Below, piece after piece: positions 11,047 to 55,308 of a stretch of 56,835 nucleotides of DNA. Positions within the stretch are counted from its first letter, which is position 1; each line of letters begins with the position of its first letter. The notes under the pieces were generated by a model. The model was not told the DNA's origin, searched no databases, and worked only from the letters and a program-made list of their open reading frames with translations. The DNA is from Halomicronema sp. (GTDB taxonomy: Bacteria > Cyanobacteriota > Cyanobacteriia > Cyanobacteriales > Oscillatoriaceae): NCBI GenBank assembly GCA_036704045.1, contig DATNQM010000011.1:1-56835 (forward strand), written 5' to 3'. Both the position numbers and the translations under genes were made by a program.

Positions 11047-12993
11047 TTATCTTTTTCCAGCAACTTGTTGAGAATTTAACCTCTCTGGTAAACTTTCCCA
11101 AAAAGGCTTTTCTACCCCATCACGGCGCGTATTTGTGGCACAGTGTGTATTTCCCCGCAATTCTTGATAATATCGGTCATTCAAAAAATACACAGTTAAA
11201 GCACTCGCAGCCACCCGCCGACGAAATTCTTCCTGAGTAAAATCTTTGCCATTAATAATAGCCCCACGAGGATTAGAAACCATTAACCGGCCATTAACCA
11301 CCACCGAATTTACCATATTCGGCCACCAAGAAGACCCACCAAAATCAAACATCGCTGGAACACGAATAATCTGATCATTGGTAAGATTAAATTCTCGCTT
11401 TACTTTCTCTTCAATAGCATTAATATTTTTTGCTTGCAGACGCAAATTATACTCAATTAGGTTTTTGTTTTGGAGGGCAGAACTAACTGTTGTTTGACTA
11501 CTTAAACCACGATTAATCAATTCATTTTTATGACCTTTTTTATCCAAGCTTTTTAACAGCTTAACTCCTTCTTCTGGACTAACAATCATCATTAAAGGTT
11601 TACCTGAAGGTGTAGGAATAAAACTAATAATTTCATCAACGTGACGAATGGCTAACCAAGAAGTATCAATATCAAGGGGTGGCCCTTGAATTTCTTGGGC
11701 TTTTAGAAAGTCTATAACGTCTGGATGAAAAGCAACACTGCCGGCATTTCCGTAATAAATTCTTCCTAAAGAATATCCGGGAATAGGAGGAGTAACTTCT
11801 AAATTTCCAAACCAATCTGTCCACTGATTAAGGGCATCTAAACGACGTGGTTTACCAACTTGAAACCACCCGAAATCTTTACTTAAAAGTGAACGAGGAT
11901 AAAAATCAGAAGCTTGTGGGCGTAGTCCATTTAAAACCACATTAAATTCCCTCATTTTTCCATCTTTTGGAAACTGTACATAACCGATTTCCATTGTGTC
12001 TTGTTTCCAAGTTGTTCCACCGGGAACGACATTAACTTTTGCGCCGGTGGGTGTAATACCGGCCCTGAGTTGGGAAACAAATTCGCGGTTCGCCATACCT
12101 ACATCACTAACATAAAGTTCCTTAACTTTTGCAGTATTAGGTACCATTAACCAAGGAGAAACTCGCATTTCTATAGTATCTTGAGAAACAATTTTATTTT
12201 TTTCTTTGGCAACTGCTTGCAGAGTAACCAAACCGTTCCAGTTACGGTTAGCAAATTGTTTAGCTTCTACGCCTAAAATAAGTTGTTTGGTGTAGGGAAG
12301 TGGTTGGGAACCATCCAGGGTAACGGGAACCCAGCCGCGTGTTGTTTTTTGAAAAACATTAATATAAGGACGGGATTTTGGATCAGCAATTAATGTAACA
12401 ATATTTTTTTGAAATTGTGGTGCAAGTTGGAGGGTAATTTTAGATAAATCTTCTTCATCTTTAGGGCCGTTTACTATTCTATCTTGCCAATCTGGCCGGC
12501 CTTTTTTATCATCATCATCCATGTTAAAAAGGATAAAGGGGCCGGTTTGCCATGTCCAAGTTTTGGTGTCTGTAAAATCGTTATCATCAATTTTGCCATC
12601 ACGGTTGCTGTCGCCAACAAGGGCAAAGTTTTTAGGTTGGATGCGTTGTTTTTCTTGGGTGGGGGTTCGATAGGGTTGGAGGGCGTTTTTTGATGTTGGG
12701 ATGCTGGTGTATTTGGCATAGTCAGCCGCTGTTATGCAACGGTTTTGTGGGATGCCGATTTTGGGGGAAAGGGTTACGCAGGTGGTGGGTGGGGTAACGG
12801 AAAGGGGAGTGTCGGAAAATTCCATACCGGCAAGGGTACCAAAAGCGGTGGTGAGGGCGATCAGAAACCCGCGAAGGTTTTGCCGTAAATTACGGGTGGG
12901 AGGGAGTTTTGGGGGTTGGGGAAATTTGCTTGCATAGATTGGCACGAGGGTGCGGGTTGGGGGTAGAATTGCTTGGGGCCATTGCCGTTGCAT
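11047..12993 (-). CDS. protein-arginine deiminase (vertebrate-type PAD family) homologue with a predicted secretion signal
   Basis: The C-terminal catalytic block aligns by eye with human PAD4: HVDEIISFIP vs HVDEFLSFVP, WPNMVN vs FPNMVN, and RGNTHCATNTRRDGVEKPF vs HGEVHCGTNVRRKPF (catalytic Cys). Asp-rich Ca-site-like segments (DSNRDGKIDDNDFTD, DDDDKKGRPDW) and an Arg-flanked hydrophobic segment (LRGFLIALTTAFGTLAG) ~40 aa into the ORF are also present. Confidence 0.8.
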   Translation of the reverse strand: MQRQWPQAILPPTRTLVPIYASKFPQPPKLPPTRNLRQNLRGFLIALTTAFGTLAGMEFSDTPLSVTPPTTCVTLSPKIGIPQNRCITAADYAKYTSIPTSKNALQPYRTPTQEKQRIQPKNFALVGDSNRDGKIDDNDFTDTKTWTWQTGPFILFNMDDDDKKGRPDWQDRIVNGPKDEEDLSKITLQLAPQFQKNIVTLIADPKSRPYINVFQKTTRGWVPVTLDGSQPLPYTKQLILGVEAKQFANRNWNGLVTLQAVAKEKNKIVSQDTIEMRVSPWLMVPNTAKVKELYVSDVGMANREFVSQLRAGITPTGAKVNVVPGGTTWKQDTMEIGYVQFPKDGKMREFNVVLNGLRPQASDFYPRSLLSKDFGWFQVGKPRRLDALNQWTDWFGNLEVTPPIPGYSLGRIYYGNAGSVAFHPDVIDFLKAQEIQGPPLDIDTSWLAIRHVDEIISFIPTPSGKPLMMIVSPEEGVKLLKSLDKKGHKNELINRGLSSQTTVSSALQNKNLIEYNLRLQAKNINAIEEKVKREFNLTNDQIIRVPAMFDFGGSSWWPNMVNSVVVNGRLMVSNPRGAIINGKDFTQEEFRRRVAASALTVYFLNDRYYQELRGNTHCATNTRRDGVEKPFWESLPERLNSQQVAGKR

Positions 12994-16347: not shown

Positions 16348-19300
16348 ATGTCTTTTGTGGGCTTACATATTCATAGCGATTATAGTTTGCTGGATGGGGC
16401 AAGTCAATTACCGCAATTAATTGATAGGGCTGTGGAATTGGATATGCCAGCAATTGCTCTTACAGATCACGGGGTTATGTATGGGGCAATTGAGTTAATT
16501 AAAGTGTGTCGTAGTAAAAATATTAAGCCGATTATTGGTAATGAAATGTATGTAGAAAATACTACACTTATTACAACGAAAAAAGGCAAAAAAGGGCCCC
16601 ATCATCAGGTGGTTTTAGCAAAGAATACTCAAGGTTACAAAAACTTGGTGAAGCTGACAACAAAGGCTCATTTAGAAGGTATGCAAGGGTCGGGTATTTT
16701 TCAGCGTCCTTGTATTAAAAAAGATTGGCTTGAGACATACCATGAGGGGTTAATTGTGACGAGTGGTTGTTTAGCCGGTGAGGTGCCGAGATTGCTTTTG
16801 CGTGAACAACTAGATGAGGCAAAAAATGTCGCCAAGTGGTATAAAAACTTGTTTGGGGATGATTATTATTTAGAAATTCAAGATCATGGCAATTGGGAAG
16901 ACAGAATTGTTAATGTAGGAATTGTAAAAATTGCCAAAGAGTTGAATATTAAAGTCGTTGCAACGAATGATTCTCACTTTACTTATTGTACTGATGTAGA
17001 GGCCCATGATGCGTTGCTTTGTGTTCAAACTCAGCAACTTATTTTTGATGAAAAACGGATGCGTTATAGCGGCACAGAGTATCTAAAATCTGCCGAAGAA
17101 ATGGCACAGTTATTCCGCGATCATTTGACCGATGATGTTATTAAAGAGGCGATTGAAAATACCTTAGAAGTGGCAGATAAGGTAACGAAGTATGACCTTT
17201 TTAATGAGCCTCGGTTGCCTAATTATCCTATTCCTTCTGGTTATACGGCAGATACTTATGTGGAGGAGGAAACTTGGAAGGGATTAATGGAAAGGTTAAA
17301 TGCTAAACAGAAAAGTGAAATTAAAACCGAATATAAGGAACGGCTGGAATATGAGTTAAAAATGATTCAAAAAATGGGTTTTTCGACTTATTTTTTGGTG
17401 GTATGGGATTATATTAAATTTGCGAGAGAGCAGGGTATTCCTGTGGGCCCTGGACGGGGTTCGGCGGCGGGTTCTTTGGTGGCGTATGCGTTAAGAATTA
17501 CGAATATTGATCCGGTGCATCATGGGTTATTATTTGAACGGTTTTTGAATCCAGAACGTAAGTCTATGCCGGATATTGATACAGATTTTTGTATTGAACG
17601 GCGGGATGAGGTTATTGATTATGTTGCTGATAAGTATGGGAAAGATCGTGTCGCGCAAATTATTACTTTTAACCGCATGACTTCTAAGGCGGTTTTAAAG
17701 GATGTGGCGAGGGTTTTAGGTATTCCTTATTCCGAGTCGGATAGAATGGCGAAAATGATTCCGGTGGCGCGAGGAAAACCGGAAAAATTAAAGAATATGA
17801 TTTCGGATAGTACGCCGGAACCGGAGTTTAAAACGACTTATGAAACTAAAGATTATGAGATAAAAGATGCCGGTGGAAATACAGTTGCAACGGTGACGGC
17901 GCGACAATGGATTGATATGGCACTCCGCATTGAGGGAACGAATAAAACCTATGGGGTTCATGCGGCGGGAGTGGTGATTTCTGCTGATCCTTTGGATGAA
18001 ATTGTGCCGCTACAAAAGAATAATGAGGGGGCGGTTATTACTCAGTATTTTATGGAGGATTTGGAGTCTTTGGGTTTGCTGAAAATGGATTTTTTGGGTC
18101 TGAAAAATTTAACGATGATTCAGAAGACTTTGGAGTTGATTAAGCAGACTCAAAATAAGGATATTGATCCTTATCAATTGCCGGCGGAAGAAAGGAAGTT
18201 TCAGGAAATTGCGGCGAAGGGAAAAACAAATAAAATTCCAGAGGATATTAAGAAAACCTATGCAACTTTAGCTGAGGGAGAGTTGGAGGGTATTTTTCAG
18301 TTGGAGTCATCGGGAATGCGTCAGGTTGTTAGAGATTTGAAGCCTTCTTGTATTGAAGATATTTCTTCTATTTTGGCTTTATACCGGCCTGGGCCTTTGG
18401 ATGCAGGTTTGATTCCTTTGTTTATTAATCGTAAGCATGGGAGAGAGGAAATTAGATACGATCACCAACTTTTAGAACCGATTTTGCAAGAGACGTATGC
18501 TGTTCTTGTTTATCAAGAACAAATTATGAAATTAGCTCAAGATTTGGCGGGATATACGTTAGGTCAAGCTGATTTACTGCGTAGAGCAATGGGGAAAAAG
18601 AAGGCTGATGAAATGAAGAAACAGCGAGAGTTTTTTATTGATGGTGCTACTAAAAATGGCGTACATCAAAAAATTGCTGAAGATTTGTTTGATCAAATGG
18701 TGAAATTTGCTGAATATTGTTTTAACAAATCCCATTCCACCGCCTACGCCTATGTGACCTACCAAACAGCTTATTTAAAGGCTAATTACACTACGGAATA
18801 TATGGCGGCTTTATTGACAGCAAATAGTGGCGACCAAGATAAAATTAAAAAGTATCTTGCCAATTGTCAAAGTATGGGAATTGAAGTTCAACCACCTGAT
18901 ATTAATCGCTCTCAAGTGGAGTTTACACCGTTAGATAAGAAAATTTTGTTTGGTCTTTCGGCAATTAAAACAGTAGGAGAAGAGGCGATTAAGTGTATTT
19001 TGCGCGCTAGAGAAAAAGATGGGCCTTTTAAATCTTTGCCGGATTTGTGTCAGCGAATTGATTTACGGGCTGTCAATACTCGGCCTTTAGAATCGTTAAT
19101 TAAATGTGGGGCTTTGGATAATATTAATCCCAATCGTAAACAATTAATGGAAGATTTGGATTTAGTAATTAAATGGGCGCAAAAAAAAGATAAAGACCGC
19201 GAAAGTGGACAAACTAATTTGTTTGATTTGCTTGGAGTGGCCGGTGATAAAAACGGCTTTGAAGAAGCGCCAAAAGGCAAGAAAGTTGATGATTTTCCTC

Positions 19301-20019
19301 AGAAAGAAAAATTACAATTTGAGAAAGAACTGCTGGGTTTATATGTGTCTGCTCATCCACTAAAGAATGCTGTGGCGATGGCAAAAAATCTTGATCCTGC
19401 ACCAATAACTCTTAGCGAATTGCAAGACAAAAAAAAGAAGAATAAAGTTAATGTGATTGTGTTGCTGACAGAGGTAAAAAAAATAACAACTAAAAAAGAT
19501 AATAGGCAAATGGCTTTTCTACAAATGGAAGATTTAGAAGGCCAAGCTGAGGCGGTAGTTTTTCCTGATACTTACGAGCAAATTAAGGATTTGCTTTTGC
19601 TAGAACAGCCTTTAATTGTTTCAGGAAAAGTGGAAATTAAGGAGGATAAGGCGCAAATTATTGTTGATAAAGTAGAGGAGGTTAAGGATGAGCCACTTAT
19701 GGCTATATATGAAGTAGCATCCCTACCTATTGAAGAGGAAGAAGAGTTAGAAAAAAATGTTAATATTGTGGTATTAGAACTCACGCCGCAAGAAGTACAA
19801 AATGTGGAAAAAATGGAAAATTTAAAAGTTATTTTTGGGGATTATACTGGCAATGGAAATAGTGTAAAAGTGCCGGTGGTTGCTATGATTGTTTCAGACG
19901 AACAACAGCGTTTTATTGAGTTTGGCTTAAACTATCGTGTACAGCAATATGATGAATTTGTGAGCCGATTAAAAGATTTGGGTTTTAAGGCGAATGTTTC
20001 TGCACTTGTGGCTGTATAA
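16348..20019 (+). CDS. dnaE: DNA polymerase III alpha subunit, contiguous (not intein-split)
   Basis: PHP domain ([13 protein letters not shown]), polymerase core, and a C-terminal OB region. There is no intein-like insertion, and a Lys-rich low-complexity stretch lies near the C-terminus. Confidence 0.95.
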
Positions 20020-22120: not shown

Positions 22121-24298
22121 TTACACAATGCCATTTTGACTGAGAGGCGTTTTAACGAAATTCCCAGAAATGGGCGGAATAACTGGCGGCAAATTGCTAT
22201 CAGAAACTACAGACTCAACAACAGAGTTTTCTGTTTCTTTTTGAGGTGTTGGAATTTGTTTACCGGCTTGGTTCCATAAAATCATCGCCAATAAACCATC
22301 AACTAAACCATTACTCGAACCATTATTTCCCCCCACCAAAACATCAGGAATTAAACGCACATTGCGCTCACCAATAATCTGCATAATTTGCATCGCCGTG
22401 TACGCATTTTCACCCAAAGCTTCAACACCTGCACGATAAGTTTCTGCCTTAGCATTCCCCGTAGCGCGGATACCTTCAGCCTCACCTGTTGCCCGCAACT
22501 TAATACCTTCAGCCTCACCTGTTGCCTGTTGAATTTGCGCCGATGCCTTCAATTCAGCAATTTTCACACTTTGTTCAGACTTCACCATTTCCTGCTGAAT
22601 TTCTGCTAAAGCTGTCTCCCTCACAAGTTGCTGCCGTTGTGTTTGAGCCATTTGTTGAACTTCAAAAGTTTTGCGTTGTTCCTCCGCAATTTTTCGCTCA
22701 GTTTGTGTTTTCATTAACTCTGGCGGCGGTTCAATTTCGCCAATCAAAGTATCAATTGCTTGGACATCATAACAACGTAGTGCCGCCTTAATATATTCTG
22801 CCGCCTCCGCCTGACGTTCACTGCGAGCACTTAAGAAATCTAAAACCGTATAATCTTGAGCAGAATTACGGAAATAATTGCCAATTGTAGGCTCTAAAAC
22901 ATGATCTACCAAATTTTGCATCGCCCCTACTCGCGAAATCACTTTTGGTGCATCCAAAGCCCCCACATGAATAATTTGTGCCACCTGCAAATCAAAAGCA
23001 AAACCATCTTTTGAACGCACCACCAAAGACGCTAATTTAGTATCATAATTATGTCTCTCTGTACGCCCTGACCAATTTAAAACAATATTTGTTGTCGGCA
23101 CTAATTCTATTTTCATTACACGGGTATTAATAGGATGTTTGCCGGGATAAAGTGGCTCTGTCCACACTCCTTTATGTCCTGGCTTAACCAAATCTCCATG
23201 AGTAAAAGAAGCCCCACTTACGTCTTCATGGGGTTTGCCTACATAAGATATAACTACACCCACATAACCAATCGGAATTTCTGTCATTGCCACTTGCTCA
23301 ACTTGAGCAAACCAAGGATTTAAATTCCAAGAACCTGACAGTAAAACCTGTTGTTGTAAACCTCGGCTACCACAATTTTGAATAAACTTTTGCCCATTTT
23401 GAAAATTATCATGATTCCCAATTACCGCTCCAGCAATTTCTCCAGCTTCAATAGAAACCCCATCTAAAGTTGTTACAATTCCAACCTTATCTGGTGCCAC
23501 CGTATAAACTTGTAATCTTTCGGGAGAAATTCCACTTTTTGTAGCATTACTAGCGGTTATTACGGTAAATAATGCTGTATTAATTCGATAAGTTCCTGCT
23601 GTTAAAAACCCAATTTGCCGGCCTTTTTCTCCCCCATTAGTCAAAAATTTTCTGGCATCTTGAAAATTTTCACAATCAACTACTTTGCCCAGAATTCTTT
23701 CGGCAGGAATTGAATCACCATCTGCGGCCACAAGCAAAGCAATTTCTCCCTGGGGAACTACAATTACCGGCTCTTTTTTAACTTCATATTGCCAAGGCCA
23801 ATAACCCCAATGCCACCCAGGTGCTAAGGTATCTGCTTGATAACCAGCTTCGCCATTTAAAGCAATTAATCTACCGGCCGGTAAACTACGAGTTGAGAAT
23901 TTTTTAGCAACAATTCCCACCTCTCTTTCACTAATAATCACAAGGCCGGTTGCTGAAGCAAAAATCAAAATTCCCCCACCTAAAACTAAGGGAACCAATA
24001 ACCATCCCCAGTTATTTCCCATTTCCACCACTTGATATGGAGAAGTGAAATTTTGCAGTTGAGCCACTTCAACCGCTGTTAATTTTTTTTGAGGTTGCTG
24101 TTTAGACAATAAATTTTCAATTCTCGTTTCAACTTTTGCTGAAGTCTTTTTTCCTTCACCAGCAACCGCCGGCATTGTCGTTAATACAGCTATGGTTGCT
24201 ACCAGGCTGGCAGCAAAGCTTACTCTTTTAAGATCCCGACCTTTATTTTCCTTCTTCCGTAAATTTTTCATAAAATAATTTATTCCTTTCAGACCCAT
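22121..24298 (-). CDS. long flotillin/SPFH (band 7) family membrane protein
   Basis: Two N-terminal hydrophobic segments, an SPFH-type start (ISEREVGIVAKKF), and a flotillin-like Glu/Ala-rich C-terminal coiled coil with ATGEAEGIKLRATGEAEGIRATGNA repeats. Its 725-aa length is comparable to long cyanobacterial flotillins. Confidence 0.55.
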   Translation of the reverse strand: MGLKGINYFMKNLRKKENKGRDLKRVSFAASLVATIAVLTTMPAVAGEGKKTSAKVETRIENLLSKQQPQKKLTAVEVAQLQNFTSPYQVVEMGNNWGWLLVPLVLGGGILIFASATGLVIISEREVGIVAKKFSTRSLPAGRLIALNGEAGYQADTLAPGWHWGYWPWQYEVKKEPVIVVPQGEIALLVAADGDSIPAERILGKVVDCENFQDARKFLTNGGEKGRQIGFLTAGTYRINTALFTVITASNATKSGISPERLQVYTVAPDKVGIVTTLDGVSIEAGEIAGAVIGNHDNFQNGQKFIQNCGSRGLQQQVLLSGSWNLNPWFAQVEQVAMTEIPIGYVGVVISYVGKPHEDVSGASFTHGDLVKPGHKGVWTEPLYPGKHPINTRVMKIELVPTTNIVLNWSGRTERHNYDTKLASLVVRSKDGFAFDLQVAQIIHVGALDAPKVISRVGAMQNLVDHVLEPTIGNYFRNSAQDYTVLDFLSARSERQAEAAEYIKAALRCYDVQAIDTLIGEIEPPPELMKTQTERKIAEEQRKTFEVQQMAQTQRQQLVRETALAEIQQEMVKSEQSVKIAELKASAQIQQATGEAEGIKLRATGEAEGIRATGNAKAETYRAGVEALGENAYTAMQIMQIIGERNVRLIPDVLVGGNNGSSNGLVDGLLAMILWNQAGKQIPTPQKETENSVVESVVSDSNLPPVIPPISGNFVKTPLSQNGIV

Positions 24299-24558
24299 AG
24301 GACAACACTAACATTTTTGCAACTAACTTTAGAGGTATTTATAATTTTTTAATCTAGGTATAAAAGTTGCCAAACTATCATAATTAAAAGAGAAAGTCTT
24401 AAAAAGCAACAAAAACGGACTCCTAACGTCTCTAAATAAACCTTCTTTGACAAATTTCCTTACTACCAGCAATATTTTTGCTATAGGTACGGTAGTTGCG
24501 AAATCTTACCGCAAATTAGTGTATTTTCTCAGTGTGTCATTCTAACCACCAAAAAACT

Positions 24559-24900
24559 ATGAGTCATCGAGTAAAAGTCCTAGAGCCATCAGGAATATTA
24601 GACGCTACACAAGCAGAAAATTTTGACCAACAAATTATTAATGTCATTCAAGAGGGAGCCGATATTGTTTTAATTGATTTGCAAGATGTTAAATTTATGG
24701 ATAGTTCTGGTTTGCGACTAATAGTTTCTGCCTATAAAACTGTCAAAGCCGCTAACCTAAAATTTTTTCTGTGTTCGTTAAATCACCAAGCAAAAATGAT
24801 TTGCGAACTATCGGGAATTAATAAACTTTTAGACATATTCCCTGACCGGCAATCCTTTAGTCAAGCCATAAATTCTGTAGAACAACTGGCTCAAGAATAG
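24559..24900 (+). CDS. STAS-domain anti-sigma-factor antagonist (SpoIIAA/RsbV-like)
   Basis: ~113-aa single STAS fold with the conserved phosphorylatable serine in FMDSSGL. The ATG at 24559 is preferred over the upstream GTG of the ORF track (24532). Confidence 0.85.
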   Translation: MSHRVKVLEPSGILDATQAENFDQQIINVIQEGADIVLIDLQDVKFMDSSGLRLIVSAYKTVKAANLKFFLCSLNHQAKMICELSGINKLLDIFPDRQSFSQAINSVEQLAQE

Positions 24901-25066
24901 TTAGGATAGGGACGGGTTTACTATAAAGGTTTGTAACAGTATAAGCTCTGTAACTTTATAAAAAACGTGTATAAACCCGCCCCTACAAAATATTTATTTC
25001 CTCCAAGCCTTCATCGATATTTATATATTTTTGATTTTAAAAAACTCAGCTATAGCAAACAATTAT

Positions 25067-27463
25067 CTAAAAACTAATCTGAAGCCAAGATACATCATCA
25101 TCAAAAGTTTCTTTAGTATTATCATTTTGCACTTCAGTTAAAAACTCATTCAGAGTAATTTCTTTTTCTAAACTCCGACTTTGTAGCCAATTGATAAAAA
25201 TATCAAAACTCCAAACCACTCCATCTGGGTGTTCAAATTCATAAATTCCATCACTAAAAATGTAAAGACTACTTCCAGGTGCGACTTCACACTCCGCATT
25301 AGTATAATTAACATTTGGTAACAGCCCAATCGGTAGACATCCAGGGATTCTTAGTTCTTGCAAACCTGTAAAATTGCCGTTATCTTTAGCAATTAAAACT
25401 GCCGGTGGATGGCCAGCACTTGAATAAATAAGCCGATTAGTTAAACGATTATAAACACCATACCAAATTGTAAAATACATATTACCATGCTTATCCATTT
25501 GAAAAGTCTGGTTAAGCGCTTCTAAAACATCACTAGGCGAATAATAATTAGTTTGTAAACCCGAACCTGATCGCAACAAATTTAATACAGATACGGACAA
25601 CAAAGCTGAACCTAAACCATGACCAGAAACATCAATTAAATAAACTGCTAAATGATCCCGGTCTAACCAATCATAACCAAAACTATCACCGCCCAACTTT
25701 TTAGAAGGAATAAACAACCAATCAATCGCCACCGGCCCGCGCATAGGACGAGGTAAAAGCGAACGCACATATTTCGCAGCTTCCTCCAACTCAGCCTCTA
25801 GTGCCGCCTGGATAAGCTGTCTTTGCTGCAACTCGGCTTGCAAAGCCGCCTCAGCACGCTTGCGCTGAGTAATATCAATTCCTACAAAAACTGCCGCTTC
25901 ATCCCCCAACCAATTCCACTTTTTAGCCAACACAGCATGACTAGGAGAACCCTCCACTTCTGCATCAATTTCTAAAGAAGCTTCACTGGCAGAACTTGCA
26001 AAAAATTCTTTTACAAATTGACCAAATTTTGATTGATGAAACCCTACTTCTCGATTTACAAAAGCCTCTTGAGGCATATTATAAATTGTCGCTAAATGTC
26101 GGTTAACACCCAAATAGCGCATATTAGAACTAATCAAAGAAACTGCCCCAGGTACAGCATCCAAAACCGTTTGCAGCAATTCCTTTGCCATTTGAATTGT
26201 TGCTTCCGACTGCTTCCGAGTTGTTACATCTCTGACAAATCCTTCAACACCCACAGGCCGGCCAGATGAATCTAGCCGCAAAATTAAAGTTTGAGACACC
26301 CAAATTTCACAACCATTGCGCCAAGCCAAAACCTCTTGCTGCCGCAATTCTCCTTCAATTTCTAACTGTTTAATACAGTTTTGCCAGAAACTTGTCTCCG
26401 CATAAAGTTGGCTAATATTTTCCACACATTCTAAAAATTGTTTTGGCGACTCATAACCAAAAATTCGTGACAAAGCAGTATTCGCGGTACAAAATTGACC
26501 ATCCAAAGTCACTTGAAATAAACCTTCATCAGTCCGTTCTAAAATTTGCCGGTATTTGCGAGAAGTCACGTTACGAAAAATCCACCGACTCAATCTTTCA
26601 CCGGCTTCAACACGGCAATCAATATTCCCTTCTACCCACACTGCATCGCCATTTTTGCTAACAAAAATTAACTCAATACCCTCTATGGTTTTGCCCTGGC
26701 GCAACTTTTCTAACAGCCAAAGTTGACGACTTTCAGGATGCAGTACATCCCACAACCACATTTTTTCAATTTCGGCATCATCGTAACCCAAAGTGGAACG
26801 CCAAGTTTGATTAACCGACATTAATTTGCCATCAGATAACCGCACACTTTGAATCACCACATTAGCCCGATCCAAAAAATTGTGTAAATGCGCTTGGGTT
26901 GTTTCCATTTGTCGCAATTGCCGGCGTGAATCCATCAACGCCATCACCTGACGCCCCAACATTTTTAACATTTCTTGCTGTTGTGAACCTAACTCACGGG
27001 GTTTGTAATCTATTACACACAACATCCCCAGCGATAAACCATCCCCCGTAATCAAAGGTACACCGGCATAAAACCGCACATAAGGAGGGCCAATAACCAA
27101 AGGATGCTCCGCAAACACACTATCCTGCAAAGCATCCCTAATAATAAATAAATCATTAGACAAAATTCCATGAGAGCAAAAAGCCAATTGTCGGCGCATG
27201 GAACCCTTAGACCAGCCAAACTTTGCCTTTAACCATTGACGCTCAGTATCGATCAAACTCATCAAAGCTGTAGGAGTAGCGCATATTTGGGCTGCTAACC
27301 TCACCAAATCATCAAAACTCGATTCTGGGGCTGTATCCAAAATATGATACTGCCTCAGTGTTTCAATTCTCAAAGCTTCGTTAGACGGCAATGGTGCTTG
27401 GCTCATTGCGACACGAGCGGTTGTCACGGAGTTTACCATTTTTATAGTCACACCAGCAGCCAA
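25067..27463 (-). CDS. GAF-PAS sensor fused to a PP2C/SpoIIE-type serine phosphatase (RsbU/IcfG-like)
   Basis: N-terminal GAF (…YHILDTAPESSFDDLVRLAA…GVPLITGDG…), central PAS-like repeats, and a C-terminal SpoIIE/PP2C domain (GGDSFGYDWL…YLIDVSGHGLGSALLS…IFSDGIYE). Confidence 0.85.
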   Translation of the reverse strand: MAAGVTIKMVNSVTTARVAMSQAPLPSNEALRIETLRQYHILDTAPESSFDDLVRLAAQICATPTALMSLIDTERQWLKAKFGWSKGSMRRQLAFCSHGILSNDLFIIRDALQDSVFAEHPLVIGPPYVRFYAGVPLITGDGLSLGMLCVIDYKPRELGSQQQEMLKMLGRQVMALMDSRRQLRQMETTQAHLHNFLDRANVVIQSVRLSDGKLMSVNQTWRSTLGYDDAEIEKMWLWDVLHPESRQLWLLEKLRQGKTIEGIELIFVSKNGDAVWVEGNIDCRVEAGERLSRWIFRNVTSRKYRQILERTDEGLFQVTLDGQFCTANTALSRIFGYESPKQFLECVENISQLYAETSFWQNCIKQLEIEGELRQQEVLAWRNGCEIWVSQTLILRLDSSGRPVGVEGFVRDVTTRKQSEATIQMAKELLQTVLDAVPGAVSLISSNMRYLGVNRHLATIYNMPQEAFVNREVGFHQSKFGQFVKEFFASSASEASLEIDAEVEGSPSHAVLAKKWNWLGDEAAVFVGIDITQRKRAEAALQAELQQRQLIQAALEAELEEAAKYVRSLLPRPMRGPVAIDWLFIPSKKLGGDSFGYDWLDRDHLAVYLIDVSGHGLGSALLSVSVLNLLRSGSGLQTNYYSPSDVLEALNQTFQMDKHGNMYFTIWYGVYNRLTNRLIYSSAGHPPAVLIAKDNGNFTGLQELRIPGCLPIGLLPNVNYTNAECEVAPGSSLYIFSDGIYEFEHPDGVVWSFDIFINWLQSRSLEKEITLNEFLTEVQNDNTKETFDDDVSWLQISF

Positions 27464-27596
27464 TTTTAAAATAAAAGTAGATGCTTTTATACATCTAAAT
27501 TTATATCATGAGCTTACCAAATCCCCCTGTAGGAATATTTTATTGTTAGCAAAGAAAAAGATATTTTTATTTGTCAAATAACCCTTACTTTTGGGT

Positions 27597-28106
27597 TTAC
27601 TCACAATCAAAATTCTTTCGCATAAGCAAACAATTACGCTCATCAGCCCCTCGACTATATTCAAGGTGATCAGTCAATTTTTTCATAAAAATAAGTCCTC
27701 GACCACCTTCTTTTTGAAGCGGATCCATAGGAGGATTATCCAAAATCTCTTGAAGTTTGGCCGAAAAATCAAAGGGCTGACCGTAATCCCAAATGCGTAT
27801 TTCTAAATACTTAGCAAAAACTTTGACCTCTAATTCAATAGGCGTATGGGACGGCAAGTTTTTGTGGGCGTGGCGGACAGCATTAGTGAATCCTTCCACC
27901 AAAGCTGTTTGACACTTCCACCAAACATTGGCCTCCATAGGAGACTGATTGAATTGTTCAAACCACTCCAAAACCTTCTCGACATCTTTAATATTTGTCG
28001 AAACCTTAAGCTGTGATTGCTTAAAGTGTGGCTGAGTTTCAGGCGTTTGTTTTTTTTCTGGTGAGGTCTTGTCTTTCCACCAACTGCCAAAATTTTCTAA
28101 CATCAT
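27597..28106 (-). CDS. HATPase_c anti-sigma regulatory factor-type Ser kinase (RsbW/SpoIIAB-like)
   Basis: 169 aa with an N-box-like ALVEGFTNAVRHAH and a G-box GGRGLIFMKKL, the size and order typical of RsbW-class kinases. It is adjacent and co-oriented with the STAS-fusion and PP2C genes. Confidence 0.75.
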   Translation of the reverse strand: MMLENFGSWWKDKTSPEKKQTPETQPHFKQSQLKVSTNIKDVEKVLEWFEQFNQSPMEANVWWKCQTALVEGFTNAVRHAHKNLPSHTPIELEVKVFAKYLEIRIWDYGQPFDFSAKLQEILDNPPMDPLQKEGGRGLIFMKKLTDHLEYSRGADERNCLLMRKNFDCE

Positions 28107-28210
28107 CTTCTATGTAGGAGAAGAATGAAATTGCCGTTCATCAAGTCCACCCTGCATCAAAAAGCAGATTACCAATGCTTTGAGAAAGTGTGTACTTTTC
28201 CAGTATCCAC

Positions 28211-29212
28211 TTACATTGCACCGCTATTTTTGCGGAACAAAACCAAAATAGTTTTAACTATTAGCTTTAAGTCATAAATTAAACTCCAATTTTTTTGATA
28301 TTGCAGATCCATTTTGATGACATCTTCAAATTTGGTGATTTTTGACCGGCCATTGACCTGCCACTCACCAGTCATCCCTGGTTTAACATCCAAGCGCTGC
28401 CACTCAGGAACCTCGTAACGCTCTACCTCATCGGGAGTAGGGGGTCGAGTACCCACTAAACTCATATCACCTTTGAGAACGTTTAAAAATTGGGGTAATT
28501 CATCCAAACTTGTCCGCCGTAAAAACCGGCCAACTTTAGTAATTCGGGGGTCATTATCATTTTTAAACAAAGGCCCTTCAACTTTGTTCTCAACTTGAGA
28601 TTTCAAAGCCTCGGCATTGGTACACATTGATCGCAACTTCCACAGCCGAAAACGGCGGCCCATCCAACCGCAGCGAATTTGACTGAAAAAAATCGGCCCC
28701 GGACTATCAAGTTTAATTGCAATACCAATAGGGATCAAGAGTATCGCAGTGATCCCCAACCCTACGATAGCCCCGATTACATCAAGGAATCGTTTTACCC
28801 AAGACCTTACTGAGGGGTGGGTGGTGGGCAATTGATTTTCGACGCGATTTTTCCGGTCAGTCGCTAGGGGTGGAGACCCGGATCTTTCGACTGTTAGTAC
28901 CTGATCTAGGCCGGTGATCGATAGCACAGCCATCACTTGCGGTTGCACGTTTCGCAACACGAGATCAATGCCTTTTTGTTGGGCTGTCCGCACGTTGTTA
29001 ACCAACGCACCCACAGCACTGCTGTCCATAAAAACCGTCTGACTGAAATCTAGCACCAGCTTAGTAGGTGGCGGAACGGCCACAAAAAGCTGTTGACAAG
29101 TTTCCTTAAATGCTACTGCTTCCAGAACACTCAGACGGGTCGGTAGTTGTACCACTGGCATTTCTTCAGAAAAAGAAACCCGAAAGTTGGCATCTTGGGG
29201 TTGGCTAACCAT
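28211..29212 (-). CDS. STAS domain fused to a monotopic phosphoglycosyl transferase (PglC/WbaP-C-type bacterial sugar transferase)
   Basis: aa ~15-110 form a STAS fold with the conserved FMDSSAVGAL serine. aa ~140-333 carry one re-entrant hydrophobic helix (VIGAIVGLGITAILLIPIGIAIKL), PIFFSQIRCG, KLRSM, the catalytic DE dyad in RRTSLDELPQFLNVLKGDMSLVGTRPP, and VKPGMTGEWQV. Confidence 0.8.
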   Translation of the reverse strand: MVSQPQDANFRVSFSEEMPVVQLPTRLSVLEAVAFKETCQQLFVAVPPPTKLVLDFSQTVFMDSSAVGALVNNVRTAQQKGIDLVLRNVQPQVMAVLSITGLDQVLTVERSGSPPLATDRKNRVENQLPTTHPSVRSWVKRFLDVIGAIVGLGITAILLIPIGIAIKLDSPGPIFFSQIRCGWMGRRFRLWKLRSMCTNAEALKSQVENKVEGPLFKNDNDPRITKVGRFLRRTSLDELPQFLNVLKGDMSLVGTRPPTPDEVERYEVPEWQRLDVKPGMTGEWQVNGRSKITKFEDVIKMDLQYQKNWSLIYDLKLIVKTILVLFRKNSGAM

Positions 29213-29448
29213 ATAACCCTGATACTTTTCGTTACTGTTGAAGGAGAAAAAAATTTTAAACGGAAAATATTAGTGATGTTTGTTTGGCAATCGTAACTTA
29301 TTTAAGAACCTTTGAGCAATGATACTTTCGTGTATTTACACAAACTTGTTTATTTTAGAACCTTCAGGCACTCTTAATCCTATACACCAAGGCTGTCAGG
29401 TACGAATAATGGGAACTTGGCTTGCTTAACATAATTTAAAATTTACCT

Positions 29449-29474
29449 AAAAAAAGCCAGCCAGTAAAGGCTGG
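29449..29474 (-). terminator. Intrinsic terminator downstream of the 143-aa gene (minus-strand CCAGCC-loop-GGCTGG then T7)
   Basis: 6-bp stem followed, on the minus strand, by a T7 run about 50 nt after the stop codon at 29526. Confidence 0.45.
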
Positions 29475-29525
29475 AGACAATCAGGTTTCACTACCCTATC
29501 TGTTAAGAGTTGGGGCGTGAAGACA

Positions 29526-29957
29526 CTAATCGAGCATTTCGTCTTCTACTGGCGGGTGGGGAAAAATTTTACCCATCATAAATTGAGGAGTGTTTTGATC
29601 AGATTGTTCGGTTGAATCAGAACAATCTACGGGTTCATGCTTTGGCCCTACACAAATCGCCGTTTGGCCTACACCGGCCATTATTTCTGTAACTTGGCCA
29701 ATAATAGTTTCAATGCGTTCGATCAATTGTTCCGCCACTTCTAAATTAGGCGCAACAATAAAAAAAGTTTTCAACCCCAAAGGACTAGGAGCAAAACCAA
29801 AATTACAATCTTCTAACAGCCGTTGTGTTGAATTGTCAAAAGAATCACACAATCGCTGCAATAAAGTTTGATAGAAGCTCTCAGCTAGTCTGCGGTCATC
29901 AAATCCAGGTTTAAACAACATGGCAAGTCCCTCCTCGGACTTTTTTTGCCATAACAA
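29526..29957 (-). CDS. hypothetical protein
   Basis: 143-aa ORF, co-oriented and immediately upstream of the STAS-sugar-transferase operon but separated from it by its own terminator. I recognise no domain. Confidence 0.5.
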   Translation of the reverse strand: MLWQKKSEEGLAMLFKPGFDDRRLAESFYQTLLQRLCDSFDNSTQRLLEDCNFGFAPSPLGLKTFFIVAPNLEVAEQLIERIETIIGQVTEIMAGVGQTAICVGPKHEPVDCSDSTEQSDQNTPQFMMGKIFPHPPVEDEMLD

Positions 29958-30313
29958 ATTCTTGTATTCTTAGTGTGAGCCCTAAAACTAGCCCAGACAG
30001 TGATGAAAGTCGATGTGGCAATGTGATAATCATCTTCTTTCCCAGTGATGAGTCTATAGCAAAAGCTGTGACTGTTGGTGACCATTTTTGTGATCTGGAT
30101 CGCCATCACTTTTAGCCATCAGTTAGCGGTTATTTTGTGTAGTAAACTACAATAAATACCGCCAAAGTTGTCACTACAAGAGATTATACCCATTTAAACC
30201 TCCAAAAATACAACTTTGGATAGATGTCAGAGAACTATTATTAAACTAACCAAAAAAACACAGAACTTGTTTGCTTGGTTCTTTTATATATTAACTTGAT
30301 AACTACCCTAAAA

Positions 30314-31771
30314 TTACAAACGGCGCCACAGAAAAAAAAACCTTTCTAAGAACCCCTGCAAACCCAGATTCCTAGCATAATTTTGTTTGGTTAACTGCAA
30401 AGCTGCCTTAGAACTAACCTCAGAAAGAGTAGGGTAAACGTGAATCATACTAGTCAAAGCAGAAACCTTTAATTTATGGGTCATTGCCAAAACAATCTCA
30501 TGCAATAACTCACCCGCCCTCGTTCCTACCAAATGGGCCCCTAAAATTTCTCCATTTTTGCGGGTAATAATCTTGACAAAACCCTCTTTATGTGATTCTG
30601 CTATAGCCCGGTCTACACCGGCAAACTCTTGTTTAAGCACACAAACCTGATCCCTATACAAAACACGCGCCTCAGCCTCTGTCATCCCCACACTTGCTAA
30701 TTCAGGCTGTGTAAACGTTGCCCTTGGCATGACGCGATAATTTCTGCGCCACACCGGCAAAAACAAAGCATTTTTCAACACCACTTGGGCTTCATAGCTG
30801 GCAGCATGAGTAAAACGATACCCGCCAATCACATCCCCACAAGCATAAATTTTTCGATTACTCGTTTGTAATTTATCATTAACAACAATTCCATCCCTGC
30901 CCACATCCACCCCCGCTGCTGGCAAATTTAGCAATTCTACATTAGGAAGCCGACCGGCAGCGACGAGAATTTCCTCAACTTTTGCCAATTGATTTTGCCC
31001 ACTCCAAATAACTTTTTCTCCCCGCTTTTCTTTAACCCGATTAACTTGCGTATTTTTGAAAATCTCAATACCTTCTGCTTGTAATTGAGTTTCCACAACT
31101 TCGGCTGCTTCCCAATCTTCTTTAGCTAAAATTTGCTTAGTTTTAGCAATTAAAGTAACCTGAGAACCTAAACGAGCAAAAGCTTGTCCCAATTCACAGC
31201 CCATCGGCCCCGCCCCAATCACAGTAATACTTTTCGGGAGTTTATTTAATGAAAAAACTTCCTTATTTGTCAAATATCCACACTCTTTTAATCCTTCAAT
31301 TTCAGGAATAAAAGGACGGGAACCGGTGGCAATTACAAAAGCACGCGCCGTGAGAATTTTATTATTAACAGTAAATTGGTGAGGGCTAATAAACTCTCCC
31401 TGACCAAAAATAACTTCTACGCCTAAACTTTCAAAACGTGTTGGTGAATCGTGGGGTTCAATAGTAGCAATAGCTTGTTCAATATGGCCGATAACTTTGG
31501 CAAAATCAATCTCTAAATTTTGGTAATTTATGCCAAACTGGCCGCTATTTTTCACCTTATAAGCAATATCGGCAGCGTGTAGTAAAGATTTACTTGGCAC
31601 ACAACCGTACCACAAACAGTCGCCTCCCAGTCGTTCGCTTTCCACCAAAGCAACTTTTGCTTTCAGTTGAGCCGCAGCGCTTGCTACTACTAAACCGCCA
31701 GATCCGCCACCAATAATTACTAAATCATATTCTTTAGCCACGAGTTCACCTATTCGCGATAGAGGATACAA
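30314..31771 (-). CDS. class I pyridine nucleotide-disulfide oxidoreductase (dihydrolipoamide dehydrogenase / MerA-like family)
   Basis: FAD-binding GGGSGG, redox-active disulfide GGDCLWYGCVPSK, an NAD-binding GAGPMGCE, and a C-terminal dimerisation domain with the HxxxxE region (HVYPTLSE). Confidence 0.8.
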   Translation of the reverse strand: MYPLSRIGELVAKEYDLVIIGGGSGGLVVASAAAQLKAKVALVESERLGGDCLWYGCVPSKSLLHAADIAYKVKNSGQFGINYQNLEIDFAKVIGHIEQAIATIEPHDSPTRFESLGVEVIFGQGEFISPHQFTVNNKILTARAFVIATGSRPFIPEIEGLKECGYLTNKEVFSLNKLPKSITVIGAGPMGCELGQAFARLGSQVTLIAKTKQILAKEDWEAAEVVETQLQAEGIEIFKNTQVNRVKEKRGEKVIWSGQNQLAKVEEILVAAGRLPNVELLNLPAAGVDVGRDGIVVNDKLQTSNRKIYACGDVIGGYRFTHAASYEAQVVLKNALFLPVWRRNYRVMPRATFTQPELASVGMTEAEARVLYRDQVCVLKQEFAGVDRAIAESHKEGFVKIITRKNGEILGAHLVGTRAGELLHEIVLAMTHKLKVSALTSMIHVYPTLSEVSSKAALQLTKQNYARNLGLQGFLERFFFLWRRL

Positions 31772-54499: not shown

Positions 54500-54871
54500 G
54501 TGATGAACCGAGGAGACTTAAGTAACGAACAGTGGGAGAGGTTAACACCCCTACTTCCTCTACTCAAACCCCGAACAGGTAAACCAAATCACGACCACCG
54601 ACAAGTGGTGAACGGCATTCTCTGGATACTCAGAACTGGGGCTCCCTGGCGAGATCTGCCAGAACGTTATGGAAAATGGCAAAGTGTGGCCACAAGATTC
54701 TATCGCTGGCAAAAAGCTAATATTTGGCAGCAAATCTTAGAACATCTCCAAGCCGATGCTGATCTCCAAGGAAACTTAGATTGGGAGGTTCATTATGTCG
54801 ATGGCACAGTAATTCGCGCACACCAGCACGCAGCGGGTGGAAAAAAGGGGGCCAAGTTGAGGAGAAACTAG
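54500..54871 (+). CDS. IS5-family transposase OrfA (DNA-binding N-terminal part)
   Basis: DUF4096-like N-terminus (LSNEQWERLTPLLP…GAPWRDLPERYGKW), ending just after the A7G slippery site. Confidence 0.8.
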   Translation: MMNRGDLSNEQWERLTPLLPLLKPRTGKPNHDHRQVVNGILWILRTGAPWRDLPERYGKWQSVATRFYRWQKANIWQQILEHLQADADLQGNLDWEVHYVDGTVIRAHQHAAGGKKGAKLRRN

Positions 54872-55308
54872 GTCGTTCTCCTGGTGGGTTTAGTACAAAA
54901 ATACATATACGTTGTGAAGGTCAAGGTAAACCGCTTACTTTTTTACTCAGTCCAGGTCAACGTAACGAATCAATATTTTTGGAACCGTTAATGGAACAAG
55001 GAGCCGTCAAACGTTCCGGGCCAGGTCGTCCCCGTATCCGTCCACAAAGGGTCGTAGGAGACAAAGGCTACACAGGTCGTCGCATCCGTAGTTATCTACG
55101 CCGTAGAGGTATCCGTTTTACCATCCCACGACTTTCAAATGAACCACGTCGGGGTTCAGAGAGCCGTGAAATCTATCGTCAACGCAATATTGTTGAACGT
55201 GCTATCAACCGACTCAAGCAATTTCGTCGCCTCGCTACTCGATATGAGAAGCTAGCTGCAAATTATACAGCCATGATTACGGTTGCCTGCATTCTGCTGT
55301 GGTTGTAG
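54781..55308 (+). CDS. IS5-family transposase OrfB (DDE catalytic part, expressed by -1 frameshift from OrfA)
   Basis: DDE_Tnp_1-like C-terminus (VVGDKGYTG…NIVERAINRLKQFRRLATRYEKLAANYTAMITVACI). Frame is -1 relative to OrfA, overlapping it at the A7G motif. Confidence 0.8.
   Translation: MGGSLCRWHSNSRTPARSGWKKGGQVEEKLGRSPGGFSTKIHIRCEGQGKPLTFLLSPGQRNESIFLEPLMEQGAVKRSGPGRPRIRPQRVVGDKGYTGRRIRSYLRRRGIRFTIPRLSNEPRRGSESREIYRQRNIVERAINRLKQFRRLATRYEKLAANYTAMITVACILLWL

Follow-up and report, generated by a model that had tools for sequence, protein, structure and literature searches.

A STAS-phosphoglycosyl transferase fusion encoded together with an RsbW-like kinase, a sensor phosphatase and a free STAS protein: a likely phospho-switch on polysaccharide priming in Halomicronema

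The 56,835-nucleotide contig DATNQM010000011.1 of Halomicronema sp. (assembly GCA_036704045.1), which was analyzed over its full length and is referred to below as the window, contains four adjacent genes encoding a STAS domain fused to a phosphoglycosyl transferase (PGT), an RsbW-like serine kinase, a sensor phosphatase, and a free single-domain STAS protein. Three canonical parts of a partner switch are present, namely the free STAS, a HATPase_c_2 kinase, and a PP2C phosphatase, and inspection of the window and of related loci turned up no sigma factor gene. By analogy with a recently described system from Anabaena PCC 7120, we consider it likely that the four genes encode a self-contained, partner-switching-like phospho-switch that acts directly on a polysaccharide-priming enzyme. 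This kind of system is already known, its architecture since 2007 and its mechanism since 2026; what is new here is a different sensor phosphatase and the presence of all parts in cis.

The fusion (28211-29212, 333 residues), the kinase (27597-28106, 169 residues), and the phosphatase (25067-27463, 798 residues) are encoded in this order on the reverse strand, with the kinase gene starting 104 bp downstream of the PGT gene. The open reading frame (ORF) of the free STAS (24532-24900, 122 residues) is on the forward strand and convergent with them, leaving 166 bp between its end at 24900 and that of the phosphatase ORF at 25067. Gene calls for an identical contig start the free STAS at an internal ATG (24559, 113 residues), the kinase at 28103 (168 residues), and the phosphatase at 27439 (790 residues). 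ORF translation recovered all four genes where the original prediction, a model's reading of the DNA letters, had placed them, and the gene order it described, with kinase, phosphatase, and STAS-PGT contiguous and co-oriented and the single STAS convergent, was verified. The predicted families were likewise assigned by Pfam (STAS, HATPase_c_2, SpoIIE, and Bac_transf), with NCBIfam in agreement, and profile searches of the 56.8 kb found no sigma factor among window ORFs of at least 150 residues, consistent with the earlier statement that none is present.

The fusion enzyme matches Pfam STAS in its N-terminal part (3e-15, residues 16-109; 28886..29167, reverse strand) and Bac_transf in its C-terminal part (1e-65, residues 140-326), as had been proposed for its two halves, and NCBIfam EPS_sugtrans (1e-84) places it among the EPS/WcaJ/WbaP-type polyprenyl glycosylphosphotransferases. 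From the N-terminus, its layout is a cytoplasmic STAS domain followed by a linker of low conservation, one predicted re-entrant membrane helix, and a monotopic PGT catalytic domain. In structure-sequence alignments, the catalytic domain aligns to WbaP (9s7s/8t53, 1e-39) and PglC (8e37/8g1n, 4e-29), and the STAS part to TM1442. The label "PglC-type" given to it previously holds for the monotopic PGT superfamily but not beyond, because the catalytic domain reaches 140 bits against catalytic domains of the WbaP/WcaJ type and only 105 bits against PglC; among families, the hexose-1-phosphate transferases WcaJ and WbaP score best, with all scores under the curated cut-offs. The segment KRxxD...LLIP161I...SPGPIFF aligns to the re-entrant helix of WbaP and PglC, and this alignment puts the predicted helix at residues 139-168 (VKRFLDVIG...LLIPIGIAIKLD; 28709..28798, reverse strand), with Pro161 as the helix breaker. 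An AlphaFold2 (AF2) model has a helix at residues 138-169, and the putative re-entrant topology would leave both of its ends in the cytoplasm. K140, R141, D144, and P161 of this segment are invariant among the aligned homologues, and the catalytic Asp237-Glu238 dyad (SLDELPQF; 28499..28504, reverse strand), which aligns with LDELPQ of WbaP, is found in every STAS-PGT in alignments of up to 50 homologues.

The predicted phospho-acceptor of the fused STAS domain is Ser64 (codon AGC, 29021..29023, reverse strand) in the loop D-S64-S-A, which shares an alignment column with the D-S-S-G serine of all 44 aligned STAS-PGTs. D63, S64, and S65 are invariant across 50 aligned homologues, and an acceptor loop of the form D-S-[S/C/A]-[G/A] is kept together with the D-E dyad in 44 out of 44 STAS-PGTs compared, including XssP from Synechocystis. 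Both serine motifs of the original prediction, DSSG in the stand-alone STAS and DSSA in the fused one, could be read: the free protein has FMDSSGL, which aligns with FMDSSGL of SpoIIAA and YMDSTGL of RsbV, and the fusion has FMDSSAV. As the first serine after the aspartate, Ser64 corresponds to Ser58 of SpoIIAA and Ser56 of RsbV, the acceptors in those proteins, and its equivalent in All4160 from Anabaena would be Ser74.

The fusion is real, and a sequencing or assembly artefact that joins two genes is excluded, because two Logan runs and one JGI metagenome, three independent assemblies, all encode the identical 333-residue protein and more than 200 cluster representatives share the combination of STAS and Bac_transf. 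These representatives, almost all from filamentous cyanobacteria, were among the matches listed in two protein searches. The next relative of the fusion, with 94% identity, is from Ancylothrix sp. C2.

The 169-residue kinase matches Pfam HATPase_c_2 (1e-24) and NCBIfam RsbW, and aligns to Bacillus subtilis RsbW (6m36) with the N-box EGFTNAVRHAH, the G1 box WDYGQPFDF, and the G2 box GGRGL all present. With its boxes intact and its gene beside that of the fusion, it is predicted from sequence to transfer phosphate to a serine of the fused STAS domain. The 798-residue protein has significant Pfam matches to all parts of the predicted GAF and PAS sensor fused to a phosphatase. From the N-terminus, these are GAF (7e-11, residues 47-174; 26942-27325), PAS_9/PAS (2e-16 and 3e-15, residues 210-413), for which two to three PAS domains can be delimited at about 25844-26836, and, after a coiled linker, SpoIIE/PP2C (8e-37, residues 602-796; 25076-25660), all on the reverse strand. 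In alignments of the PP2C part to Rv1364c and to the REC-PP2C structures 3es2/3eq2 from Pseudomonas aeruginosa, the motifs GGD, DVSGHG, and SDG are matched, and a C-terminal DDD motif could be read off the translation. Its gene adjoins the others and its metal-binding motifs are intact; the protein is a putative activator of the enzyme.

The free STAS protein (Pfam STAS, 3e-20; 24559..24900, forward strand, 113 residues in an ORF opening at 24532) belongs, like the fused domain, to the NCBIfam anti-sigma factor antagonist superfamily. It aligns to SpoIIAA (1th8/1auz) and RsbV (6m36_B), with FMDSSGL on FMDSSGL, and its predicted acceptor is the first serine of this motif (codon 24703-24705, forward strand), which is S58 in the numbering of the 122-residue ORF. 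The gene is kept at the same position and in the same orientation in five related loci (L084, L085, L087, L091, and L097). There is no significant pairwise similarity between the free and the fused STAS of the window, and the two domains are therefore old, separately conserved partners and not the result of a recent duplication.

The function proposed for the module is modeled on All4160 from Anabaena PCC 7120, which combines an N-terminal STAS domain with Bac_transf and is required to make the envelope polysaccharide of heterocysts (Harada, Matsuoka, and Ehira; bioRxiv April 2026, Mol Microbiol June 2026; PMC13555669). In vitro, the RsbW-like kinases Alr3423 and All2284 phosphorylate All4160 on Ser74, the S74A substitution restores envelope polysaccharide and diazotrophic growth in a mutant without the SpoIIE phosphatase HenR, and deletion of alr3423 suppresses the henR defect (PMC13555669). 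There is no kinase gene near all4160, and a second STAS-glycosyltransferase gene, all2285, adjoins all2284, a pair of which only the adjacency is mentioned; XssP of Synechocystis is described as an All4160 homologue and the architecture as widespread in cyanobacteria (PMC13555669). The central claim of the original prediction, that reversible phosphorylation of a STAS serine switches polysaccharide initiation, is hence supported by what has been shown for this homologue with HenR and Alr3423/All2284 (PMC13555669). Its suggestion that such wiring had not been characterized is out of date, since the mechanism was published in 2026 (PMC13555669) and a passage in a 2021 review mentions the all4160 architecture with reference to a paper from 2007. 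Like the Anabaena system, the window module has a STAS-Bac_transf protein with a phosphorylatable serine, an RsbW-like kinase, a SpoIIE phosphatase, and no sigma factor, and regulation would presumably fall on the enzyme itself here as well. Unlike it, the window has its genes contiguous, whereas the three Anabaena genes are dispersed; its phosphatase carries GAF and PAS domains where HenR carries a receiver domain, and it includes a free STAS, for which the published model has no counterpart. The glycan must also differ from the heterocyst envelope polysaccharide made in Anabaena because neither Ancylothrix nor Halomicronema is known to form heterocysts.

Taken over to the window, the mechanism would run as follows. 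The RsbW-like kinase would phosphorylate Ser64 in the cytoplasmic STAS domain of the fusion, and phospho-Ser64 would keep the transferase off, the sign of regulation being taken from All4160. The PP2C phosphatase, with GAF and PAS domains that may sense an intracellular signal, would strip the phosphate from Ser64, and the dephosphorylated enzyme would move a sugar-1-phosphate onto undecaprenyl phosphate. The convergent free STAS would serve as a second substrate or partner of the same kinase; purely by analogy with SpoIIAA-SpoIIAB, its unphosphorylated form might sequester the kinase and sharpen the switch, so that the role of competitor originally suggested for it is plausible. We infer the phospho-mechanism of the window protein, the sign of its regulation, and the role of the free STAS by analogy with these better known systems. 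In its strongest form, the model would be a true partner switch with a membrane enzyme in the position of the sigma factor. A single kinase would select between two very dissimilar STAS partners, the free protein and the fused domain; after dephosphorylation by the GAF/PAS phosphatase, the free STAS would trap the kinase and thereby free the enzyme, resulting in an all-or-none start of synthesis. This we put forward tentatively, as somewhat doubtful. If true, the four-gene block would be the first case of a complete circuit, from the signal through to the enzyme, encoded at a single locus; the published Anabaena work includes neither a free STAS nor a one-component GAF/PAS sensor phosphatase (PMC13555669).

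The distribution of the module was studied in species-representative genomes and in contigs encoding selected homologues, whose ORFs were searched with the window proteins, and 44 STAS-PGTs were placed in a midpoint-rooted neighbour-joining (NJ) tree. A large clade in this tree holds four groups: the window subclade, solitary copies, Kamptonema, and a basal group. The window subclade includes Ancylothrix at 94% and three further lineages at 77, 74, and 71% PGT identity, and all its members have the STAS-PGT, the kinase, a (GAF-)PAS-PP2C, and the convergent STAS, even where the flanks differ. This conservation of the block down to 71% PGT identity in spite of differing flanking genes supports a functional unit of the kind proposed. 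The solitary copies are from Nostocales and some Oscillatoriales and have no kinase in the available flanks (up to 10 kb); at the Fischerella locus, the only one of them with gene calls, a GT4 glycosyltransferase gene comes next. Kamptonema has the PGT, the kinase, and a GT4, and Microcystis, Spirulina, and Limnothrix in the basal group have the PGT and the kinase. Conservation of the four-gene neighborhood, which the original prediction had put up for examination, thus holds within the window subclade, and the commonest conserved unit overall is the PGT with the kinase; the full block is confined to this small Oscillatoriales subclade.

A second clade (Richelia sinica, L028; Nostoc sp. FACHB-280, L030; and others) has the PGT and the kinase immediately adjacent, and in its two Nostocales members the kinase is followed by a free STAS and by a PP2C in convergent orientation. 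The catalytic domain of the REC-PP2C in this clade is 45% identical to that of the window, and the free STAS consists of two STAS repeats in tandem, which each share 34-36% identity with the free STAS of the window. In L030, the tandem STAS (11482-12168) has FMDSAG in each repeat and is adjoined by the REC-PP2C and by a PAS/GAF/HNOBA hybrid histidine kinase with Hpt; the Wzx-type polysaccharide cluster that surrounds the module is complete, with genes for a pyruvyl transferase, a Wzx-like flippase, a GT1, two GT2, and Alg14/Alg13-like proteins. This clade is probably the All2285 group, with L030 and L028 as the likely equivalents of all2285-all2284. Such loci resemble the window in combining a STAS-PGT, a kinase directly downstream, a free STAS, and a PP2C, and differ from it in their separate clade, the REC-PP2C with hybrid histidine kinase, the tandem STAS, the Wzx-type cluster, and a different G2 box.

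With the solitary Nostocales copies, which belong to the same clade and are probably All4160 orthologues, the window protein shares 64-70% identity. Nostoc sp. FACHB-280 has one solitary first-clade copy (P0238) and one kinase-linked copy (L030), a two-paralogue pattern that matches the published description of all4160 and all2285-all2284. The codon of the acceptor serine is AGY in both clades and does not discriminate them. XssP (sll5052 region of pSYSM, Synechocystis sp. PCC 6803), a STAS-PGT that is 50.6% identical over 95% of the query, branches outside both main clades in the midpoint-rooted NJ tree and has the acceptor loop DSAA. It has been described as the priming glycosyltransferase of synechan in a Wzx/Wzy pathway (PMC8205485). 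Unlike the window fusion, it is encoded in the xss Wzx/Wzy cluster with the kinase, the phosphatase, and the free STAS all absent within 9 kb, and its known control is transcriptional, via XssS/R/Q. In the wider superfamily the fusion is rare: among 65,952 Bac_transf relatives, the 150 best representatives at 50% identity include only about a dozen that extend over the STAS region, and some of this dozen are longer fusions.

Such longer single-ORF fusions have the architectures Alg13-like (GT28_C)-Alg14-STAS-Bac_transf and WecG-STAS-Bac_transf (L036 8894-11167 from Pseudanabaena; P0285, P0289, and P0284), in which STAS is placed between a second-step glycosyltransferase and the priming transferase.

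The analysis was also run from the side of the kinase, by scanning metagenomes with a kinase alignment; the 80 best loci were retained, 69 of which had enough upstream sequence to be informative, and the results are indicative and not a census. The PGT is directly upstream of the kinase on the same strand in 60 of these 69 loci, often with overlapping ORFs, and in most of the 60 the STAS domain of the PGT is visible on the contig. After dereplication at 90%, the PGT is directly upstream in 37 of 45. The nine remaining loci of the 69 have no PGT within 4 kb; seven of them have a REC-type PP2C beside the kinase, and five of those also a free STAS. This subfamily of kinases is therefore largely dedicated to STAS-PGTs. 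A GAF/PAS phosphatase of the window type was seen at only two scan loci (L097 and L105), and the PGT-kinase pair is accordingly the widespread core, with the four-gene block present only in the subclade. Kinases adjacent to STAS-PGTs share the signature EGFTN[AV]VRHAH, IWDxG, and RNCL in both clades.

Two further features of the kinases and their loci were observed. An N-terminal extension, M[MI]LENFxSWWK, is shared by the window-subclade kinases and missing in the other kinases linked to STAS-PGTs, and the second-clade kinases have HWGC/S where the GGRGL G2 box stands. At five loci without a PGT within 4 kb (L147, L152, L163, L165, and L167), a kinase of the same subfamily, sometimes encoded by two genes in tandem, occurs together with a free STAS and a PP2C in convergent orientation; a receiver domain was confirmed by Pfam for L147 only.

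Several observations weigh against a phospho-switch on the priming enzyme. According to its authors, in vivo phosphorylation of All4160 itself was not shown directly (PMC13555669), and the orthology of the window clade to All4160 is read from the clade grouping and the two-paralogue pattern. Many close relatives have no adjacent phosphatase or free STAS, and the four-gene wiring is not universal. The acceptor loop of the fusion and of its Ancylothrix orthologue is DSSA, whereas 41 of the 42 other aligned STAS-PGTs have DSSG and XssP has DSAA. The AF2 model of the fusion is poor (mean predicted local distance difference test score (pLDDT), 64.9; predicted template modeling score (pTM), 0.44), with no confident arrangement of the domains and a linker (residues 112-136) below a pLDDT of 50. 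Finally, genes for Wzx, Wzy, or other glycosyltransferases are absent from the neighborhood of the module in the window; the closest candidate for a polysaccharide gene, encoding a DegT-type aminotransferase, is 7 kb away.

The alternative that fares best in light of these data turns the direction of signaling around, with the transferase as the sensor: its catalytic or substrate state, for example with respect to undecaprenyl phosphate, would alter the binding between STAS and kinase, the kinase would target the free STAS or an unlinked partner, and the controlled output would lie elsewhere, such as in transcription or motility. STAS domains do relay signals when fused to SLC26 transporters and in stressosome proteins, the cyanobacterial HmpUVW and HcyABC systems have non-sigma outputs, the free STAS is conserved in the block, and kinases of the same subfamily, nine of whose 69 loci have no PGT within 4 kb, also occur with only a free STAS and a REC-PP2C. 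However, the commonest conserved unit is the PGT with the kinase alone, with no free STAS nearby, and non-phosphorylatable All4160 restores the polysaccharide in the phosphatase mutant, which puts the enzyme downstream of the switch (PMC13555669). We therefore find this direction of signaling unlikely.

Slightly less probable still is that the fused STAS is not a phospho-switch at all and instead mediates dimerization, membrane targeting, or ligand binding as in SLC26 proteins, with the kinase, the phosphatase, and the free STAS acting independently of it. The DSSA loop in place of DSSG would fit such a role, as would the control of PGT dimerization by a signaling protein known from EpsW-EpsZ (PMC12802240), and the free and fused STAS domains, being without significant pairwise similarity, need not share a kinase. 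Yet neither Asp63 nor Ser64 varies among the aligned homologues, at most loci in two clades the gene after that of the fusion encodes the kinase, often with overlapping frames, and All2284, which is encoded beside all2285, phosphorylates the fused STAS of All4160 in vitro (PMC13555669).

Very improbable, finally, is a canonical switch in which the kinase is an anti-sigma factor for an unlinked sigma factor, both STAS domains are antagonists, and the transferase is a mere membrane anchor: although the kinase aligns to RsbW with all nucleotide-binding motifs and the superfamily model for anti-sigma factor antagonists matches both STAS domains, a sigma factor is absent from the 56.8-kb window and from all related loci inspected, the related HcyC and, as cited, HmpW bound no sigma factors in two-hybrid tests, the transferase shows a strict conservation of catalytic residues for which an anchor would have no need, and the genetics of All4160 indicate that the enzyme is what is targeted (PMC13555669). 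All three alternatives are disfavored by the Anabaena suppressor genetics, the conserved catalytic and acceptor residues, and the tight linkage of the kinase, and control of the priming enzyme itself by phosphorylation of its STAS domain is the explanation we prefer.

RsbU/RsbV/RsbW-SigB and SpoIIE/SpoIIAA/SpoIIAB-SigF from Bacillus subtilis are built from the same three families, and the acceptor loop and kinase motifs align residue for residue, but in them the kinase holds a sigma factor, which is the output, whereas the window has no linked sigma factor and a STAS fused to an enzyme. In Vibrio fischeri SypE/SypA, phosphorylation of a STAS serine sets Syp polysaccharide post-transcriptionally and without a sigma factor. 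There, however, SypA is a free STAS with no STAS-enzyme fusion, and SypE carries the kinase and the PP2C as the two ends of one response regulator; in the window, kinase and phosphatase are separate, and Pfam finds GAF/PAS domains in place of the receiver. EpsW-EpsZ from Myxococcus xanthus shares the principle of post-translational control of an initiating PGT by a phospho-dependent signaling domain, but relies on a separate single-domain response regulator, a large monoPGT, and proposed dimerization, with no STAS, serine kinase, or PP2C (PMC12802240). The four-gene Hcy partner-switching system from Nostoc punctiforme differs in having no glycosyltransferase.

In many bacterial polysaccharide pathways, the committed step uses the scarce carrier undecaprenyl phosphate, and post-translational gating of the priming step is only now emerging, with EpsW-EpsZ in 2025 and All4160 in 2026. 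The locus brings no new principle and is best seen as a tidy natural version of the All4160 circuit with all parts adjacent, which makes it convenient for reconstitution and for probing the role of the free STAS and the GAF/PAS signal. The comparative results extend the 2026 paper by a dedicated kinase subfamily, a PGT-kinase core, and a phosphatase catalytic module that is combined with either receiver or GAF-PAS sensors.

The boundaries of the transcription units are inferred from spacing only, because scans for promoter-like and terminator-like sites showed no enrichment over shuffled sequence in 24200-30100. A terminator-like hairpin with a T-run (CCAGCC-TTTACT-GGCTGG; 29457..29474, reverse strand), situated outside the module between the PGT operon and a gene encoding a 131-residue protein, may mark the upstream boundary of the operon, but the evidence is weak as terminator-like sites in the region are no more frequent than in shuffles. 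No Rfam family was matched in 24000-30400, including the 313-bp leader. The gene for the 131-residue protein (29526-29921, reverse strand) was considered as a fifth member of the module and rejected. Although it accompanies the block in L084, L085, and L087, its homologue is not near any STAS-PGT in Laspinema, Okeania, or a Microcoleaceae metagenome-assembled genome, and the hairpin also sets it apart from the PGT operon. The protein has no Pfam or NCBIfam match and belongs to a small family of 22 clusters confined to Oscillatoriales.

Elsewhere in the window, 11047-12993 (reverse strand) encodes a 648-residue homologue of protein-arginine deiminase (Pfam PAD, 2e-67, and PAD_M) that is unrelated to the module. 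The dnaE gene (16348-20019) is a single intact ORF of 1223 residues; in Ancylothrix sp. C2 (L084, 13384-17002), dnaE appears to be in two pieces with a LAGLIDADG-type ORF between them, which hints at an intein or at a gene that has been split. A 175-residue fragment of a DDE transposase is encoded close to the contig end, at 54781-55308 (forward strand).

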